Of a stretch of DNA of 64,000 bases, positions 51,203 to 58,040 are shown one piece after another (positions within the stretch are counted from its first letter, which is position 1; each line of letters begins with the position of its first letter). Below the pieces are notes generated by a model. It worked only from the letters and a program-made list of their open reading frames with translations, was not told the DNA's origin and ran no database searches. The translations under genes and the position numbers were made by a program. The DNA is from Candidatus Zixiibacteriota bacterium (GTDB lineage: Bacteria > Zixibacteria > MSB-5A5 > GN15 > FEB-12), in contig JAHOYZ010000028.1 in assembly GCA_019038695.1 (NCBI GenBank), positions 12,492-76,491 on the forward strand, read 5' to 3'.

Positions 51203-51784
51203 CTATTCCAAATCCAAAAGGTTTGATATCGCTTCTATCAGTTTCGATTTCTTGGCTTGAGAGATTTCCCGCCCTTTGAGACTCAACCCCTCTAAAGTAC
51301 GAGCATACCGTCGAAGCTCAGCGACGGTCATACTCTTCAACATCTGAGGTGTAACTTTACTCCCCGGAACATCACCTCTCGCACTGGAATCAGGTAATTT
51401 CCTTTTTCTTGAAGGACGGCCGCCACTCTGTTTAGTACCGCCTTCAGCGGCTCCCGACTCGGGATCAAGCGACGGACGGTGATCATCGGTATGATACTTT
51501 GACACAAAGCGGCGCGCAGGTAGAATTGCATCAAGACCATCGTCCGCGTTGGCAATTATCGTGACTGCCACAATTTCACCGACACGCTCCGCTGCCGCCG
51601 TCGATGCTTCGCATGCCGCCTGCACTGCTCCCAACTCACCCTCAATCCTGAGAGTGAGAAATGAAGCATCGGTTAACTCTACCGATGACACCACTATTCC
51701 GGCCGCCTTAGCGGCTGCATCGGTAGCCTCGATAGCGGCTATAAGCCCATGTGTCTCAATCAGACCCAGTGCATTTCGTGGCAT
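51203..51784 (-). CDS. BMC-H shell protein with linker and C-terminal small helical domain
   Basis: ALGLIETHGLIAAIEATDAAAKAA...GELGAVQAA; tail MTVAELRRYAR..KKSKLIEAI. Confidence 0.88.
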   Translation of the reverse strand: MPRNALGLIETHGLIAAIEATDAAAKAAGIVVSSVELTDASFLTLRIEGELGAVQAACEASTAAAERVGEIVAVTIIANADDGLDAILPARRFVSKYHTDDHRPSLDPESGAAEGGTKQSGGRPSRKRKLPDSSARGDVPGSKVTPQMLKSMTVAELRRYARTLEGLSLKGREISQAKKSKLIEAISNLLDLE

Positions 51785-51928
51785 AGTATGAAATAATACC
51801 GCATCGGATGGAAAAAGTAAATTGATTATCTATCTGATTGCGGGAAAAACACACTTGCCACTCACATTGTCGAGAAGATATCCACAATTGTGCATAATGC
51901 CACCTCGTGGTGATGCCACCTCGTGGAT

Positions 51929-51967
51929 AAAAAACGGTCACCCGTGCTCCCCTCAAGCACGGGTGAC
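51929..51967 (-). terminator. Intrinsic terminator in the BMC operon upstream region
   Basis: GTCACCCGTGCT-7-AGCACGGGTGAC-CG-TTTTTT. Confidence 0.8.
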
Positions 51968-52029
51968 AAACCGCCAAAGAGAAAAAACATTGTCCGTCTT
52001 TGAGACGGCGCTCAGGGAGTAAAATACAA
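51929..52029 (-). ncRNA. Candidate ~100-nt small RNA or attenuator leader
   Basis: Lies between a -24/-12 promoter and a strong terminator; internal CCGTCT/AGACGG hairpin; no useful ORF. Confidence 0.4.
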
Positions 52030-52039
52030 TTATAGTACG

Positions 52040-52055
52040 AGCAATCTGTGTGCCG
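52040..52055 (-). promoter_or_regulatory. Sigma54 (-24/-12) promoter candidate
   Basis: CGGCAC-ACAGA-TTGCT with correct GG-to-GC spacing; a TATAAT at 52029-52034 also allows a sigma70 reading. Confidence 0.6.
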
Positions 52056-52352
52056 TAGCCAGGGGCAGCGCCATTGAATTGCTATAACCGAGTGTTATAT
52101 AAGAAGATAACAATGCGGCCATACGGACACTGTAAGAGGTTACCATTTGCAGTTCGTACGATTGTACGAGAGGGAGAACAAAGAAAAGCGGTAAGTGCAT
52201 GATAATCACACACTTACCGCCACCAAGGAATATATGTTCACCTTCGTGCCAAAGCACGACAGGTTCATTATGTACAATGCTCACGCGCCTAATGCGACAA
52301 CAGAGCTGCCGACATTATTATAACGCTATGAACAGACTCAGCGATCAGCCGT

Positions 52353-54602
52353 TCAGTTAACGACACCTCCTTCACAGGAAATCCCGTATCTCTTTAGTTT
52401 GGTGCGAACGGTTGCCTCGTGAATCCCGAGTATCCGAGCCGCTCTGGATTTGTTGCCGCCCGATGCAAGCAACGCCTCATTTATGAGCCTCCGTTCGAAT
52501 TGCTCTACGCGCTCAAATAGAGATTTCTCACCCCGAGGTTGGTCTGCGGAAAAAATCGACCGCGACAACTCGATGAGGTCTCCTTCGGTTACCATCGCCG
52601 CCATCACTTCCAATCGTTTGATCTTGTTGACCAACTCGCGGACGTTTCCGGGCCAGTCATACTTGACAAACAGATGAACCAGTTCTGTCGGTATTTTCCC
52701 GTCATCAGTCAGACTGCATTGGCTCAGGAAGTGATTTAGCAATAACGGGATATCCTCTTTTCGTCGTTTGAGCGACGGAATGTGGAAGCTAATTCCGCTG
52801 ATTCGATAGAACAAATCACGACGGAAACTCCCTTTCTCAACCATCAGTTCCAGATTCTGGTTGGTTGCCGACACTAGCAGGATGTCCAGTTTGATCTCAG
52901 TAGTGGACCCGATTGGGATTACCCGACGAGTTTCCAGAACGCCAAGCAGCTTACTCTGCAACGAGAGTGGCAGGTCACCTATCTCGTCGAGATAAAGCAC
53001 TCCGCCGTTGGCCGAGGTCAGCAATCCCGGTTTGTCCTTGTCAGCACCCGTAAAAGCACCCTTGTGATAGCCGAACAACTCGGATTCAAGCAGAGTTTCG
53101 GGTATTGAAGCGCAGTTTACCGCCACAAAGGGACCATCGGGTCGGACCACGGAACGGAAATACCGCGCCATGTGATCCTTGCCGGTGCCAGTCTGACCGG
53201 TGAGCATCATCGGTAGATTCGAACGGCCGATTAGCGACAGCTGTTTTTTAAAGCTCTCGATCTCCGGGCAGGAAGTGAGAAACTCTGCCTTGCCGGCATT
53301 GCTGGTCGGTGCCTGATTGAGCTTATTTTGGTCGAGATCAGAATCTGTATCGGCGATCAGTCGCTGGATACGATCGACAACGTTGGTGATACCATCACGT
53401 CGATAAAACTCCTCAGCCCGGAAGAGATAGGTCAGTCGCTGACGCCGGGTGAATACTTTCGTCCGACCAGCGGCAATCAGAGTCTCCGCCTGAGCCACGC
53501 AAATACCGGATTCTGCCAACAGATCAAGCGATCTGCCATAATGATTGCGTGCATCCGACTCGTTGTCCTGAATCTCGGCAACCTGAGCTCTCAGACGCCA
53601 GAGCGCGCCAACTTCTTCGGTCACACCAGCCTTGTCCATAATGACCATAGCCCGCGCCACATAGCGCTGCGCCATCGGTAAGTTGCTCGACAAAACGGCA
53701 ACTTCGGCCAGATGCCTGAGCACACGACCGGTCAGAGTGGTCTCCGGATCGATCTTCTCGGTTATTGCCAAGGCCTGTTCAAGAATATCCCTAGCCGCAC
53801 CTAATTCGCCGGAGCGATATTTCAGTTCGCCAAGATAAGTCAGGTACATAACCTCATCGCGACGACAGTCGCATTGAACCAGTTGCTCACGAGCATTGTT
53901 GAGAGCGATTTCTGCGTCATCGAATCGGTCAGTCAGAATGTGAACATAGCCCAGCGACATATAAGCCCGGGGCAGCTCCTGAGTCTGACCGAGTTCTTCC
54001 GATAGTTCGATATTGATCTGCAAGTGACTACAGGCTTTTTCAAAATCTCCTACAAATGTGTGAATACGACCAATGTTACCCATCATGAAGGCCAGCTTGT
54101 GGCGATCATTGAGTCGACGGGCAATGTCTACTGCATCCATAAGGACGGTCAGAGCTTGGCTGAAGTCCGACTGCTTAAAAAACAGTCCGGCTAACAGGTT
54201 GAGCGCCCGACTCTGTCCCTCGGGACAGTCATTCCTGCGGAAAATTGATTCCGCATCACGAAAGGCCTTTTCCGCTTCCCTTAGTTCTCCCAGGTTGCGT
54301 AGTATCCCCCCGATTACTACAAAAGTTTCCGCCAATTCACGGCTGTCGCCAAACTCCGCCTGGAGAGTTTGAGCCGTTCGGGCGGTTCGCAACGCAACCG
54401 GGTAATCTGCGAGGGAAGCATAGGCCGTGGCGGCGAGACGCATAACTAGCGCCGCGCCCGGGCCGCCAGCACAGTCCAGTTCACTACGATTGTCCTCGTA
54501 GCAACTGATTGCGCTGGCGAAATCCCGCGAGGTAATCAATGACTCAAGATAGTGAGCCATTGCCTCGTGTATTCCACTGGCATTGTTTTCCATTTTCCTC
54601 AT
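52353..54602 (-). CDS. TPR-containing sigma54-dependent activator (bEBP, Fis-type HTH)
   Basis: N-terminal TPR-like helices; GQTGTGKD, ELFGYHKGAFTGA, LYLDEIG, WPGNVREL, GGNKSRAARILGI; no receiver domain. Confidence 0.93.
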   Translation of the reverse strand: MRKMENNASGIHEAMAHYLESLITSRDFASAISCYEDNRSELDCAGGPGAALVMRLAATAYASLADYPVALRTARTAQTLQAEFGDSRELAETFVVIGGILRNLGELREAEKAFRDAESIFRRNDCPEGQSRALNLLAGLFFKQSDFSQALTVLMDAVDIARRLNDRHKLAFMMGNIGRIHTFVGDFEKACSHLQINIELSEELGQTQELPRAYMSLGYVHILTDRFDDAEIALNNAREQLVQCDCRRDEVMYLTYLGELKYRSGELGAARDILEQALAITEKIDPETTLTGRVLRHLAEVAVLSSNLPMAQRYVARAMVIMDKAGVTEEVGALWRLRAQVAEIQDNESDARNHYGRSLDLLAESGICVAQAETLIAAGRTKVFTRRQRLTYLFRAEEFYRRDGITNVVDRIQRLIADTDSDLDQNKLNQAPTSNAGKAEFLTSCPEIESFKKQLSLIGRSNLPMMLTGQTGTGKDHMARYFRSVVRPDGPFVAVNCASIPETLLESELFGYHKGAFTGADKDKPGLLTSANGGVLYLDEIGDLPLSLQSKLLGVLETRRVIPIGSTTEIKLDILLVSATNQNLELMVEKGSFRRDLFYRISGISFHIPSLKRRKEDIPLLLNHFLSQCSLTDDGKIPTELVHLFVKYDWPGNVRELVNKIKRLEVMAAMVTEGDLIELSRSIFSADQPRGEKSLFERVEQFERRLINEALLASGGNKSRAARILGIHEATVRTKLKRYGISCEGGVVN

Positions 54603-54614
54603 CGCGTGTTACCC

Positions 54615-54983
54615 TTAATTACTGGAAGTTGTGGTCGCGGATTGTCCAATCTCCTCGTTCAAAGTACCGGTCTCCCCGGAAATATCATCTGAAATAGTGA
54701 TATCATCTTTGGGGTCATCAACGAACCAGATATTGATGATGAATTTCCACAGGAAAACATCATAGATGTTATTGCCTGCGATACAACCAAGTTCGCCTCC
54801 CCCGGATGAGGAAATTATGACCGAACCTCCATCCCAGACACTCTCACCACCCCACGGGTGGTCGTCGCCAGTTCCGTCAATTGCTCTGTATCCTTGAGGA
54901 TTCTGACGCGCTTCGGTATTACCGAGCGGAATTGCAATTAGTATCAGCACTACGGCCAATACAAAGATCAGTTGCTTCATCAC
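54615..54983 (-). CDS. Small secreted protein (candidate signalling pro-peptide)
   Basis: AGGAG RBS; signal peptide ending TEA; DDHPWGGE motif; ends 12 bp before the bEBP start. Confidence 0.7.
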   Translation of the reverse strand: MMKQLIFVLAVVLILIAIPLGNTEARQNPQGYRAIDGTGDDHPWGGESVWDGGSVIISSSGGGELGCIAGNNIYDVFLWKFIINIWFVDDPKDDITISDDISGETGTLNEEIGQSATTTSSN

Positions 54984-55088: not shown

Positions 55089-55117
55089 ACGATAAGGCAT
55101 AACTACCATGCTGTCAA
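55089..55117 (-). promoter_or_regulatory. Sigma70-type promoter for the peptide-bEBP operon
   Basis: TTGACA-17bp-TATCGT. Confidence 0.5.
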
Positions 55118-55286
55118 CCTCTTTCTCTAATTCCGGAGCGAGTGGTTGTACAACTCCATGACAAACAATCTTGCATCAAAAAAGGTCAACGGCTAAGTTC
55201 AATACGAACCGAGTCTTGCTATGAGCACCCGGTAATCATACATGTGTAGTCCAAATCGTTGGACTCTGACACAGAAAGATTGCGAT

Positions 55287-56477
55287 ATGCGAACGATCTG
55301 TATTTTCATGATAGCAGCAACAGCTCTTGCAATGGTAACACTGCTTTCGTGTGGAAGTGGTGATGGTAGCGACAATAATGACGTTATTGGCGGTGGCAAC
55401 GGCGGGAACCCAATAGATCCGGACCAGATTCATCCCGGAAACGGGATTTTCCCAATTGCAGTCAGCTACGCGACGGCCAAGTACCCGTTATCTGTCTTTG
55501 CCTCTGATTTTAACGGCGATGGTGACAAAGATCTCGCTGTAGCGAGCGAACTGGGAAACAGCGTTACGATCCTGGACAATTCCGGAAATGGGACGTTTGC
55601 CTCCGGCTTCAACGTTATGGCCGGGAAAAAAGCATACTCGGTTTTTATGTCTGATCTCGACGGTGACGGTGACAGTGACTTGGCTGTCGCAAACAAGGAG
55701 AGCGACAACGTATCGATCCTAACCGGTGATGGTGATGGAACATTTGCCGTGGCTGTTAATTACCATGCGGGAAACAGTGCCTGCTGTATTGTCGGTGGTG
55801 ACCTTGACGGTGATGGAGATATCGACCTGGCCGTCGCCAATTATGATTCCGACAACGTATCTATTTTGATGAACGATGGCGATGCAACATTCGCGAGCGC
55901 GGTCAACTACGGAGTTGGTGATTACCCTTACTCCGTCGCCATCTCTGATCTGGACGGCGATGGTGACCTTGATCTGGCATCGCCCTGCTGGGGAGACGAC
56001 AAAGTTTCTGTGTTGAAAAACAACGGTGACGGAACCTTCGCTCCGGCAGCGAAGTTTGACACCGGGACCGATCCCTTCTCTATCTGTGCCGCTGATCTTG
56101 ATGGTGATGGAGATATCGACCTGGCCACCGCCAGTTACGGCTATACTGTGAATGATGTATCGGTCCTAAAGAACAACGGAGATGCAACTTTTGGTGCGGC
56201 CGTGAATTACGAAACCGGAGACAACCCACAATTCATTTGTGCTGCTGATCTTGACGGCGACAAAGATATTGATCTGGTGGTAGCTAATAAGGATTCCAAT
56301 GACATATCAGTTCTGAAGAACAACAGTAATGGAACATTTTCAGCCGCTGTCAACTACAACGCAGGCAATGGACCAAGTGGCGTGTTCGCTTCGGACCTGG
56401 ATGGTGATGGAGATTTGGATCTGGCCGTCGCCAATGCTTTGGCCGATAGCGTCTCAATCCTTATGAATGAAAAGTAG
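55287..56477 (+). CDS. FG-GAP/VCBS repeat lipoprotein
   Basis: Lipobox LLSC; about 7 DLDGDGDxDLA repeats of about 49 aa. Confidence 0.9.
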   Translation: MRTICIFMIAATALAMVTLLSCGSGDGSDNNDVIGGGNGGNPIDPDQIHPGNGIFPIAVSYATAKYPLSVFASDFNGDGDKDLAVASELGNSVTILDNSGNGTFASGFNVMAGKKAYSVFMSDLDGDGDSDLAVANKESDNVSILTGDGDGTFAVAVNYHAGNSACCIVGGDLDGDGDIDLAVANYDSDNVSILMNDGDATFASAVNYGVGDYPYSVAISDLDGDGDLDLASPCWGDDKVSVLKNNGDGTFAPAAKFDTGTDPFSICAADLDGDGDIDLATASYGYTVNDVSVLKNNGDATFGAAVNYETGDNPQFICAADLDGDKDIDLVVANKDSNDISVLKNNSNGTFSAAVNYNAGNGPSGVFASDLDGDGDLDLAVANALADSVSILMNEK

Positions 56478-56663
56478 CCAGCTGAGTATTGTAGTTCTCT
56501 TAAGTAAGGTAGGAGCACTGCGCACCTGCCGGCTGAAATGTCCAGTGTTATGGCAAGGGAGCCAAGGGGTGAGTCGTATTGGAATGTGCGTTCCGGATTA
56601 CAAATGGGCTATTGCCATACTCGATTACTCAATGGATATTACTGGATGCAAATTGGTTACATT

Positions 56664-58040
56664 ATGAAAATCACTACTGGATTCTTAGTCGCAATTATCG
56701 GGCTGGTTGCCGGGCTATCAGTGTTGGGGTGCTGGCAGTCAGATGAAGAAATCGCTCTTCGCAAATTCCCCTACCCATACCGGGCTGCTCTGTCTATTTG
56801 CTCGGATATTGACCGAACCACAAGCATCGAAAAATTCCTTGAAATACAGGAGTTCCTAAATTCGGACAAGGTAACAGCATATGGCTCAGGGCTTGGTCTC
56901 GACATCGGTAACTCGTTTTGGTTCTACAATCAATACTACCAGAAGCGAATGGAATTGCCTGCCTCTGATTCCTTGTCTGGGGAGGAAGCTACTTTTGATC
57001 CCAATCTGGGGATCTCGCTGTTTGTCGGAACTAGTGATAGTTTGTGGTCGCACGCAGGTACTATGGTGAGCCTCATAAGATCCGGTCACCTTGATTGCCT
57101 GCACAGTTATGGGCATTTCCAAGAAAACGGGTTCAGTCGTGAGCTGGCCATTCAAGCGATTGACCTGTTCGAAAGCGAGTCACTTGCCGTCGATGTATTC
57201 ATCAATCATGGGGCTGAGGAAAACCAGAACAATATTGGCGAGGCGTCATGGTTCCTCGGAGATAACCCTTCAACGGACATTTATCATGCCGACCTGACGG
57301 TCTCGATGGGCATCAAGTTCCTGTGGCGTGGACACTTATCCCACTGCATCGGTCAGGATGGATGTTTCTCGATTGTTAACTTGGCCAAGCAGGGCTATGA
57401 GTTCATACAAGACCTGATGTACACAGAACAGAGCTACCCACACGATAATAAACTGGTTCACGTTTGCGAACTTGATGATGGTCAGAAAGTTTTTGAATTT
57501 GTACGTTACAATAATCCCTGGGGTAAGTACTCCAACGCTAACGAGGAATTTTTCGCACATCAGCTCGGCCCGGATCAGGTTGATGACCTCGTTGAAAAAC
57601 AGGGCTATATGATCTTCTACACGCATTTGGGAACCAATCCACATCAACCATATCTGTCACCGTCAACAGTAGATGCTTTGCGATACATAGAGGAGAAGCA
57701 TGATCGGGGAGAGCTCCTGGTCGCAACGACCTCACAATTATTGAACTACTATGTCAACCAGAAACACCTATTCTGGCGAGAGGAAAACAGGCACGGTAGC
57801 TTGCACATAATGATCGATAGTATCGCTAATGAAGTAGAGGGATCCTATGTACCGAGCCACAAGGATCTTGCCGGAATAACTTTCTACGTTCCCGAAGATT
57901 GTGACGTAGTTCTGAGCGTAAACGGTGAACCTGTTCCGTTTGTGCGAAATGTAAAAGACCAGACCGGCAAAGAATCAGTTTCGATACCCTGGCGACGATT
58001 GGCGTTCCCTGATTCTGAGACACCGTTACCGCAGAACTGA
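56664..58040 (+). CDS. Secreted or lipoprotein, possibly with a polysaccharide deacetylase-like fold
   Basis: Signal/lipobox VLGC; ICSDID, DCLHSYGH, INHG, YTHLG candidate metal motifs. Confidence 0.55.
   Translation: MKITTGFLVAIIGLVAGLSVLGCWQSDEEIALRKFPYPYRAALSICSDIDRTTSIEKFLEIQEFLNSDKVTAYGSGLGLDIGNSFWFYNQYYQKRMELPASDSLSGEEATFDPNLGISLFVGTSDSLWSHAGTMVSLIRSGHLDCLHSYGHFQENGFSRELAIQAIDLFESESLAVDVFINHGAEENQNNIGEASWFLGDNPSTDIYHADLTVSMGIKFLWRGHLSHCIGQDGCFSIVNLAKQGYEFIQDLMYTEQSYPHDNKLVHVCELDDGQKVFEFVRYNNPWGKYSNANEEFFAHQLGPDQVDDLVEKQGYMIFYTHLGTNPHQPYLSPSTVDALRYIEEKHDRGELLVATTSQLLNYYVNQKHLFWREENRHGSLHIMIDSIANEVEGSYVPSHKDLAGITFYVPEDCDVVLSVNGEPVPFVRNVKDQTGKESVSIPWRRLAFPDSETPLPQN

Follow-up and report, generated by a model that had tools for sequence, protein, structure and literature searches.

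The window analysed here is a 64,000-nt stretch of the genome of a Candidatus Zixiibacteriota bacterium (contig JAHOYZ010000028.1, positions 12,492 to 76,491), in which the gene of a small exported protein with an HPW motif directly precedes the gene of a sigma-54 activator whose sensor consists of tetratricopeptide repeats (TPRs). The pair and the elements behind it are best explained as a signalling cassette specific to Zixibacteria and built in three layers, a reading to which a probability of about one half is given as a whole. The first layer, a circuit made of the bicistron, the TPR-sigma54 activator, a unique palindrome, one sigma-54 promoter and one small RNA (sRNA), is judged from sequence comparison to be very probable. 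In the second layer, the exported protein is likely to be the cognate input of the activator, since the two genes stay side by side throughout, disappear jointly where loss occurs and have co-radiated into paralogous pairs with different flanks. The third layer is the relay, for which re-uptake of an HPW fragment into the TPR groove is the preferred but speculative route.

The source genome (3.28 Mb, 96% complete, 58 contigs) belongs to an uncultivated sediment member of Zixibacteria. An earlier note on this DNA, made from its letters, had assumed a diderm host, and the lipopolysaccharide genes of the window, encoding KdsA, KdsD, a lipid A acyltransferase and LptC, support such an envelope.

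The exported HPW protein and its activator

The small gene was placed on the minus strand at 54615..54980, encoding 121 aa from an ATG at 54980. An alternative GTG at 54983 gives an open reading frame (ORF) of 122 aa (54615..54983, minus strand), and the ATG is considered the likelier start because AAGGAG is found 6 nt before it and all homologues start with MK. The activator gene follows after a 12-nt gap and in frame (TAA GGG TAA CAC GCG). The earlier note had described a 122-aa signal-peptide ORF with DDHPWGGE lying 12 nt before the gene of a 749-aa bacterial enhancer-binding protein (bEBP), and its coordinates, motif and gap were reproduced.

The N-terminus of the small protein resembles a Sec signal peptide (aa 1-25), with MK, a hydrophobic core and an NTEA↓R site. 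Within the family, Sec export was assigned by heuristics: an initial MK or MR is seen in 139 of 149 sequences, the Kyte–Doolittle maximum over 15 residues (KD15) of the core is 2.3-3.4 in 43/43 sequences, and small residues occupy positions -3 and -1 of the predicted cleavage sites (TEA↓R, AFA↓L, AFS↓R). The motif G-D-D-H-P-W-G-G-E follows at aa 38-46 of the 121-aa protein (G38-DDHPWGG-E46; 54843..54869, minus strand). The mature protein of about 95 aa is acidic and probably largely disordered, with a short amphipathic hydrophobic stretch, FLWKFIINIWFV. This stretch was considered as the transmembrane anchor of a bitopic anti-activator and rejected, with charged residues inside and a median post-motif maximum over 19 residues (KD19) of 1.2, compared with 2.3-3.4 for the signal-peptide core. 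Since the second hydrophobic stretch is not transmembrane-like, the mature protein would be soluble outside the cytoplasm. An arrest peptide of the SecM/MifM/VemP type was also ruled out by reasoning, since the motif ends about 21 residues past the signal peptide, a distance too short for a pulling force to act, and is about 225 nt away from the activator start codon.

No Pfam or NCBIfam match was found for the small protein. Its family comprises 302 clusters among 1.84 billion representatives, all of about 110-135 aa, and across 100 unique pairs the length ranges from 93 to 156 aa (median 120). The family consensus of the motif is G-[DE]-D-H-[PT]-W-G-G-[ED]. In the top 149 clusters it begins at residue 27-52 and keeps W in 146, H in 140 and GG in 143, so that the motif is conserved, as the earlier note had required of its reading. 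The one clear stand-alone copy is a 74-aa exported ORF in another genome (G193:C182, locus L149:3071-3295, minus strand) with two motifs, GDDHPWGGDE and TDDHSWGGDQ, and no adjoining activator; the same genome also holds a normal pair elsewhere. A second profile match without an activator, inside a 413-aa open frame (G208:C134), is probably spurious.

The activator gene (52353..54602, minus strand) encodes 749 aa with TPR, AAA+, AAA lid and HTH_8 regions. Its sensor domain (aa 8-428; 53319..54581, minus strand) is composed of about ten forty-residue TPRs, forming a superhelix of the LGN/Pins and MalT-domain-III type. Pfam assigned TPR_12 (six stretches) and TPR_MalT (PF17874, residues 60-362, E=1.6e-17) to this region, and found no REC, GAF or PAS and no sensory domain besides TPR in the protein. 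The AAA+ sigma54-interaction domain (aa 444-605; 52788-53273, minus strand) matches Sigma54_activat (PF00158, E=3e-57) and is followed by AAA_lid_14, with Walker A GQTGTGK at aa 469, the Walker B DE in VLYLDEIG, and an intact GAFTGA loop at aa 515-520 (53043-53060, minus strand). The C-terminus carries a Fis-type helix-turn-helix (HTH), HTH_8, at aa 699-739 (52386-52508, minus strand). The all-TPR regulatory region and intact GAFTGA claimed from the letters alone are confirmed by these domains. The hallmarks of a bEBP are found together in silico, namely the AAA+ domain with GAFTGA and Walker motifs, the C-terminal Fis-type HTH, rpoN in the genome (contig C4), and a -24/-12 promoter with an enhancer. 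Neither a signal peptide nor a transmembrane segment was seen in the activator sequence. Orthologues form at least 303 clusters, all of about 750 aa and each with either a Zixibacteria label or none. Full-length relatives are labelled Zixibacteria, apart from a few that are evidently mislabelled, and outside the phylum only the AAA+ part matches.

The pair behaves as a conserved unit. Among loci found via the small protein, the orthologous activator (38-86% identity) lies directly downstream in 22/22, with gaps of -20 to +18 nt between the two genes. GTDB loci found via the activator have the small ORF in 23 of 24, two of them with H-to-Y or H-to-Q variants, and the remaining locus contains an assembly (N) gap. 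Further loci fetched on TPR coordinates alone hold the upstream small ORF in 80/80, of which 77 were recognised by motif search and three by profile matches at the expected place upstream of the activator. The pair is found in about 120 orthologous loci, and the adjacency extends to about 140 when paralogues are included. The activator evolves much more slowly than its partner, with 86% versus 58% identity in one comparison and about 58% versus about 33% in others.

The distribution of the two genes follows the same pattern. The small-protein profile matches 129 of 251 Zixibacteria genomes and is almost confined to one GTDB order (families f1-f4). In f1, the family of the window, genomes without a small-protein match hold only a paralogue-level TPR match (E 1e-26 to 1e-37), with a sole exception in which the gene is cut by a contig end, and one genus (g59) is without both genes of the pair. 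Three seeming exceptions in f3 and f4 proved to be divergent ORFs with EHPWGDE, EEHPWGGE and QEHPWGGE. The co-occurrence proposed in the earlier note is therefore seen as joint loss in f1 and g59. No third gene is conserved beside the pair in relatives, and no conserved kinase gene was found nearby.

Other Zixibacteria families carry 1-6 TPR-sigma54 activators per genome, with TPR regions only 25-30% identical. All 17 distant TPR activators examined have their own upstream signal-peptide ORF of 96-123 aa, and six extra paralogous copies found via the small-protein profile likewise have an upstream exported ORF, for a total of about 23. In these ORFs an HPW, HTW or HPE core lies 6-25 residues from the predicted cleavage site and is followed by acidic residues, and the flanks differ between paralogue groups (GPIVIxGHPWGE, QEHPWDD, LEHPEQE, ADPWEH, AHTWDE). 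Different variants also coexist within single genomes (GEHPWDD, ADPWEH, QGHPWGE). Together with the roughly 120 orthologous loci, these 23 paralogous activators, each with an exported variant-HPW ORF, bear out the expectation that homologous bEBPs come with an upstream secreted ORF and that paralogous pairs exist. The window genome has a paralogue of its own on contig C3, a 980-aa TPR-sigma54 activator (C3:127277-130231, minus strand) whose gene is preceded by an exported acidic ORF. Behind this activator gene (about 126900-127000), GGCAGGCATTGCCTGTTGTTGG stands four times in tandem and CCGTGGGCGG...GTCTGCCC hairpins recur.

A candidate sigma-70-type promoter of the bicistron, recognised by consensus match only, lies about 110 nt upstream of the small ORF (55089..55117, minus strand; TTGACA-17-TATCGT, 10/12 consensus matches). 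Sigma-54 autoregulation was ruled out, as no -24/-12 element was found upstream of the small ORF in the loci scanned. Divergent from the cassette, the window encodes a 411-aa lipoprotein-like FG-GAP/VCBS repeat protein and a 500-aa protein without Pfam or NCBIfam match (55242-58040, plus strand); neither gene is conserved beside the pair in relatives.

Predicted output behind the activator gene

The candidate enhancer, or upstream activating sequence (UAS), is a palindrome, TCGTA-N6-TACGA, located about 105 bp upstream of the -24 element (52154..52169, unstranded). It occurs at the same place, between promoter and sequence-conserved bicistron terminator (52187-52221), in at least 16 of 18 orthologous loci, and only once in the 3.28-Mb genome versus about three occurrences expected by chance. 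The sigma-54 (-24/-12) promoter itself, CGGCACacagaTTGCT, has one mismatch (52040..52055, minus strand), and a YGGCAY-N5-TTGCT element is present on the same strand 184-367 bp after the activator stop in 18 of 20 testable loci. In one relative (L027:5454-5650, plus strand; G028:C79), at least seven direct copies of a half-site, (A/T)(A/T)(T/C)TCGTAC(C/T), spaced about 20-25 nt apart, were seen 3' of the sRNA; the half-site is the same as that of the activator's palindrome.

The predicted sigma-54-dependent sRNA of about 100 nt lies directly downstream of the promoter (51929..52031, minus strand), with a predicted start near 52029. It is laid out as 5' GUAUUUUACUCCC (also GUCAUUUUUACUCC), a variable hairpin, single-stranded UUUUCUCUUUGG, a GC-rich terminator hairpin and a U-run. 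The terminator hairpin (51937-51967, minus strand) has a conserved GAGGGGAG loop, and compensatory changes were found in 11 of its 13 pairs, a covariation reached by 0/500 shuffles, while slid controls dropped to 38-56% paired. Two stretches of the sRNA, ACUCCC and CUCUUUGG, resemble an anti-Shine-Dalgarno (anti-SD) sequence. The 5' ACUCCC(U) is also complementary to the conserved terminator loop GGGGAG(U), with seven possible pairs, and could form a pseudoknot or a self-sequestered anti-SD seed. No known RNA family was retrieved from Rfam, either at the gathering threshold or at E up to 10, and no Hfq was found in the window genome.

The bicistron ends in its own terminator (52187..52230, minus strand), GCGGTAAG...CTTACCGC with a T-run, preceded by an anti-SD-like (A/T)(C/T)TCCTTGG. 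The k-mers GCGGTAA, CGGTAAG and CCAAGGAG are common to 8-10 of 18 loci. This terminator is kept in sequence and not in structure alone, as (A/T)CTCCTTGG, GCGGTAAG...CTTACCGC and the T-run recur in 8-10/18 loci, and it is similar to the 3' half of the sRNA that follows (CUCUUUGGCGG and a hairpin). The region could be a second sRNA derived from the 3' untranslated region or a shared protein-binding module.

The earlier note had proposed sigma-54 transcription of the neighbouring sRNA and bacterial microcompartment (BMC) region, and only the first half of that proposal stands, in silico, with the UAS, the -24/-12 promoter and the covarying RNA. The BMC operon was rejected as a conserved target, since only about 7 of 20 loci have BMC genes next in line, and these are missing from that place in a genome of the same genus. 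In the window, a sigma-70-like promoter (51793-51821, minus strand; TTTACT-17-TATTAT) lies directly before the extended BMC-H gene (51203-51784), so that the shell gene has a promoter of its own, apart from the sigma-54 unit. The sigma-54 promoter, its UAS and the sRNA are conserved regardless of the next gene. In three BMC-followed loci (L022, L024, L025) the sRNA hairpin has no U-run, and read-through into the BMC genes is therefore possible there. Given the conserved UAS and promoter, the unique palindrome, and a BMC operon that follows in few loci and has its own promoter, the sRNA appears to be the conserved target of the activator and apparently its only one in the window genome.

An sRNA of this kind behind every paralogue was ruled out, because a downstream sigma-54 promoter was seen at only 2 of 10 distant paralogues and not at the C3 copy, where no -24/-12 promoter lies within 1.4 kb behind the gene. 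In the ADPWEH/LAHPWEH group (L135 and L140; G122:C14 and G105:C17), perfect sigma-54 promoters (TGGCATaccccTTGCT and TGGCATgcccTTTGCA) lie about 215-230 bp behind the activator, and a CU-rich stretch with a GC hairpin (GCCCTGTCCCGCC...GGCGGGATGGGGC) comes next. These elements probably represent another sRNA family, unrelated to the first and likewise under the control of a TPR activator.

Possible routes from the exported protein to the TPR sensor

The TPR region was modelled with AlphaFold2 (AF2) as about ten 40-residue repeats at a predicted local distance difference test (pLDDT) score above 90. Among proteins of solved structure, LGN/Pins is closest in sequence (E=1e-15), and RapI (3e-5) and RapJ (4e-4) come far behind. 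The top Foldseek matches are LGN/Pins complexes enclosing extended peptides, with TM-scores normalised to the target (TMt) of 0.70-0.78, and MalT domain III (1hz4, TMt 0.71); the top 50 contain no receptor of the RRNPP quorum-sensing family.

The canonical register of the repeats was set from positions W4, L7, G8, Y11, A20, F24 and A27. The concave-face positions 2, 5, 6, 9, 12 and 13 have a median entropy of 1.23 bits versus 1.92 for the rest and are thus the more conserved. This is the reverse of the usual trend, since these positions, through which HOP binds peptides, are normally the most variable in TPRs (PMC1261162). Residues at least 90% invariant include R132, N135, G175, N176, R179, Y219, Y256, E259, Y262, R296, H297 and E300. 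Such a constrained polar and aromatic groove would be compatible with an invariant acidic ligand containing Trp.

In the preferred sequence of events, the sigma-70-type bicistron would yield the exported HPW protein and the cytoplasmic activator at coupled stoichiometry. The HPW-containing N-terminal segment of the mature protein would be released outside the cytoplasm, re-imported by the ubiquitous OPT transporter rather than Opp, and lodged on the concave side of the TPR, in its conserved groove lined by Arg, Asn and Tyr, where it would relieve TPR repression of AAA+ hexamer assembly. The Fis-type HTH of the activator would bind TCGTA-N6-TACGA just behind its own gene and, together with sigma-54, the activator would fire one promoter to produce the anti-SD-rich sRNA of about 100 nt. 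Such a circuit would be of the autocrine or quorum type and would resemble RRNPP systems by convergence, not by homology.

Covariation between the motif and the groove was studied in 98 unique pairs, in which HPW changes to HTW/HNW in 22 sequences by three parsimony events. The change is accompanied by S216A in 19/22 versus 0/76, by F142Y in 21/22 versus 3/76 and by M215I in 15/22 versus 1/76, and S216, F142 and M215 occupy helix-A positions 6, 12 and 5. No groove position was among the top-3 clade markers in seven control clades of similar size. This joint change of groove residues and motif points towards direct binding, as a hint and not a proof.

Several observations weigh against re-uptake. 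The covariation stems from only two to three independent events, for which reason it is taken as a hint, and the +5 E/D position of the motif gave no interpretable signal against the TPR columns, nor did positions -2 and +6. The co-variation suggested in the earlier note is therefore seen weakly for the HPW core and not for these other positions. Since the two genes are in frame, read-through translation with TAA read as Gly provided a natural single-chain fusion for AF2. When the mature small protein was fused to the TPR (106-row alignment), the whole small part had a pLDDT of 26-36, and when the full precursor was fused to the full activator (50 rows), the signal-peptide helix reached 70-75 and the rest 24-41, with no docking in either run. 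The small-protein part of the alignments was shallow (8-22 rows, with 22 covering the motif in the full-precursor run) because MAFFT misplaced most stand-alone small-protein rows; given these shallow alignments and no multimer model, the result counts as a weak negative. The peptide binding to the TPR put forward in the earlier note is thus not supported by the two fusion runs, whose small parts beyond the signal peptide stay below a pLDDT of 50, with the groove covariation as a weak hint in its favour.

Uptake raises further difficulties. To our knowledge, the Opp/Ami permease is the importer in all RRNPP systems studied. No member of the OppA family (SBP_bac_5) was found in the 96%-complete window genome or in 55 of the 61 family genomes. 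Genes for an OPT-family oligopeptide transporter occur in 38 of 41 relatives, with that of the window genome at C10:76630-78372, so that import by a route other than Opp is possible; they give no specific support, since they also occur in genomes without the pair. In addition, the peptide would face two passages through the outer membrane, the precursor has two to four times the size of an RRNPP propeptide, and the motif is invariant across an order. Pheromone codes, in contrast, usually diverge. Finally, the region was present in only two sequencing runs, both of marine-sediment DNA, and in no RNA run.

An importer would not be required in a secretion-coupled partner switch, which is compatible with the absence of Opp. 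Here the TPR would capture the freshly synthesised precursor, or the HPW segment of it, while still in the cytoplasm, and export through Sec would take it away, following a logic that resembles FlgM/sigma-28, ExsE or a co-translated anti-activator like that of NifL-NifA. The activator would then report export flux or envelope state, with the anti-SD sRNA as an envelope-stress-type output. The tight translational coupling of the genes would put both proteins at the same site in a fixed ratio, and the conserved groove and its covariation with the motif fit equally well. The anti-SD-like ACUCCC and CUCUUUGG stretches of the sRNA are likewise in line with it, such stretches being typical of sRNAs that repress many exported-protein mRNAs. 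However, the full-precursor AF2 run showed no docking either, a general secretion monitor needs no set of up to six orthogonal pairs per genome with different flanks, and we know of no precedent for the sensing of a Sec substrate by a bEBP. This switch is therefore considered rather unlikely.

The absence of docking in both AF2 runs is also what would be expected if the two proteins made no direct contact. The small protein would in that case be a periplasmic or secreted effector or sensor that acts via an intermediary, or else co-expressed cargo, and the TPR would sense something else, such as another cytoplasmic protein or a small molecule as in MalT. The matches to TPR_MalT and to domain III of MalT, a small-molecule sensor, agree with this, and the mature protein and the soluble activator reside on opposite sides of the inner membrane. 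But the near-perfect adjacency, co-loss and co-radiation over about 140 loci speak against it, groove residues change mainly where the motif changes, and no third gene is conserved, so any obligatory intermediary would need to be a housekeeping factor. The absence of contact is held to be as improbable as the secretion-coupled switch. In a ranking that is speculative throughout, re-uptake of the HPW fragment comes first, followed by the secretion-coupled switch and then by the absence of direct contact.

Known systems and meaning for Zixibacteria

The earlier note had read the pair as RRNPP-like peptide signalling. RRNPP systems (Rap-Phr, NprR-NprX, PlcR-PapR and AimR-AimP, from Firmicutes and phages) also place a Sec-tagged ORF beside a cytoplasmic TPR regulator (PMC10075063), and in both cases paralogous pairs with different peptide codes occur in one genome. 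The five-criterion signature of these systems is a propeptide of 10-100 aa that is Sec-secreted, a cytoplasmic TPR receptor of 250-500 aa whose TPR region lies C-terminal to an HTH or Rap-type effector domain, and neighbouring genes, and RRNPP_detector discards architectures with an N-terminal TPR (PMC10075063). The pair agrees in Sec secretion, in the cytoplasmic TPR receptor and in direct gene neighbourhood, and departs in propeptide size (121 aa, with precursors of about 120 aa in general) and in receptor size and architecture (749 aa, with the TPR N-terminal here and C-terminal in RRNPP). The output is an HTH or a phosphatase there and an AAA+ sigma54 activator here. The small gene here is upstream and translationally coupled, with an invariant motif core, and the host is a diderm in which OppA-family binding proteins are absent and the TPR is closer to LGN/MalT than to Rap. 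Given these sizes, this architecture and the absence of OppA-family proteins, the pair does not belong to RRNPP, even if its mode of action may be similar, and the cassette is at most convergent with that family. What holds of the RRNPP-like reading is the Sec-tagged neighbour ORF with a TPR receptor; the sizes, the N-terminal and LGN/MalT-like TPR and the missing OppA go the other way.

A true homologous RRNPP member that moved into a diderm lineage is accordingly very improbable. Such an origin would account for the adjacent Sec-tagged small ORF and cytoplasmic TPR receptor, which agree with three of the five points of the RRNPP_detector signature, and for the weak sequence matches to RapI and RapJ. 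It is opposed by an architecture discarded as non-RRNPP, by the AAA+ sigma54 effector, by the 121-aa propeptide and the lack of OppA-family binding proteins, and by the Foldseek matches, in which LGN/Pins is far closer.

On the output side, the closest likeness is to PxrR-Pxr of Myxococcus (PMC5684412) and LuxO-Qrr1 of Vibrio (PMC8043402), which share an activator gene with an enhancer, a -24/-12 promoter and a terminator-ended sRNA. The order and the spacing of about 260 bp are nearly identical in PxrR-Pxr (PMC5684412), and qrr1 lies beside luxO (PMC8043402). Both activators are receiver-domain response regulators fed by histidine kinases, whereas here a TPR and an exported partner are found and no REC. 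The window genome further differs from these cassettes in having no Hfq and an sRNA without an Rfam family. NtrC-NrsZ of Pseudomonas is another sigma-54 sRNA cassette adjacent to a bEBP.

For the sensor, MalT domain III offers the same superhelix of 40-residue TPR-like repeats (TPR_MalT E=1.6e-17; TMt 0.71). In MalT, a ligand on the TPR-like domain licenses ATPase-driven oligomerisation of a transcription activator, a feature comparable to that proposed here. It differs in having a STAND NTPase and a LuxR-type HTH and in sensing maltotriose, in place of the sigma54 AAA+ and Fis-type HTH found here. LGN/Pins shares the superhelical fold (TMt 0.70-0.78), and the inner channel of LGN holds extended acidic peptides, but it is a eukaryotic scaffold, and neither MalT nor LGN is paired with an exported protein or with sigma-54.

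A dedicated co-expressed partner sets the activity of a sigma-54 activator in NifL-NifA, PspA-PspF and HrpV-HrpS, and NifL-NifA is translationally coupled with the partner upstream. In FlgM-sigma28 and ExsE, export of the partner is the signal. All of these partners are cytoplasmic or leave via type III systems, and they bind the AAA+ domain or the sigma factor. In contrast, the partner described here carries a Sec signal peptide, and the TPR is its only plausible docking site.

The literature searched held no description of a TPR-sensor bEBP, of the pair, or of sigma-54 in Zixibacteria. The known switches of sigma-54 activators are receiver, GAF, PAS, V4R and similar domains, or else partner proteins in the cytoplasm, and genetically encoded peptides read by cytoplasmic TPR receptors are regarded as a speciality of Firmicutes. 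That Zixibacteria own a peptide-signalling system in which HPW pro-proteins are processed, taken up through OPT and read by TPR-sigma54 activators is a doubtful proposition at present. If true, some lineages would hold up to six orthogonal pairs per cell, each with its own target, which here would be a single sRNA. A diderm phylum would then have cell-cell or kin signalling by peptides that are read inside the cytoplasm, with AAA+ activators as receivers, and a convergent system of this kind in a diderm candidate phylum would widen the Firmicutes-centred picture.

By whichever route the signal is relayed, a single input gene, receptor, enhancer and sRNA make up this minimal cassette, and with a regulon of apparently one promoter in the window genome it is unusually simple to reconstitute in a laboratory host. 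It comprises a new sRNA family and a protein family of 302 clusters, both without annotation, and provides an entry into gene regulation of an uncultivated phylum that is abundant in sediments.

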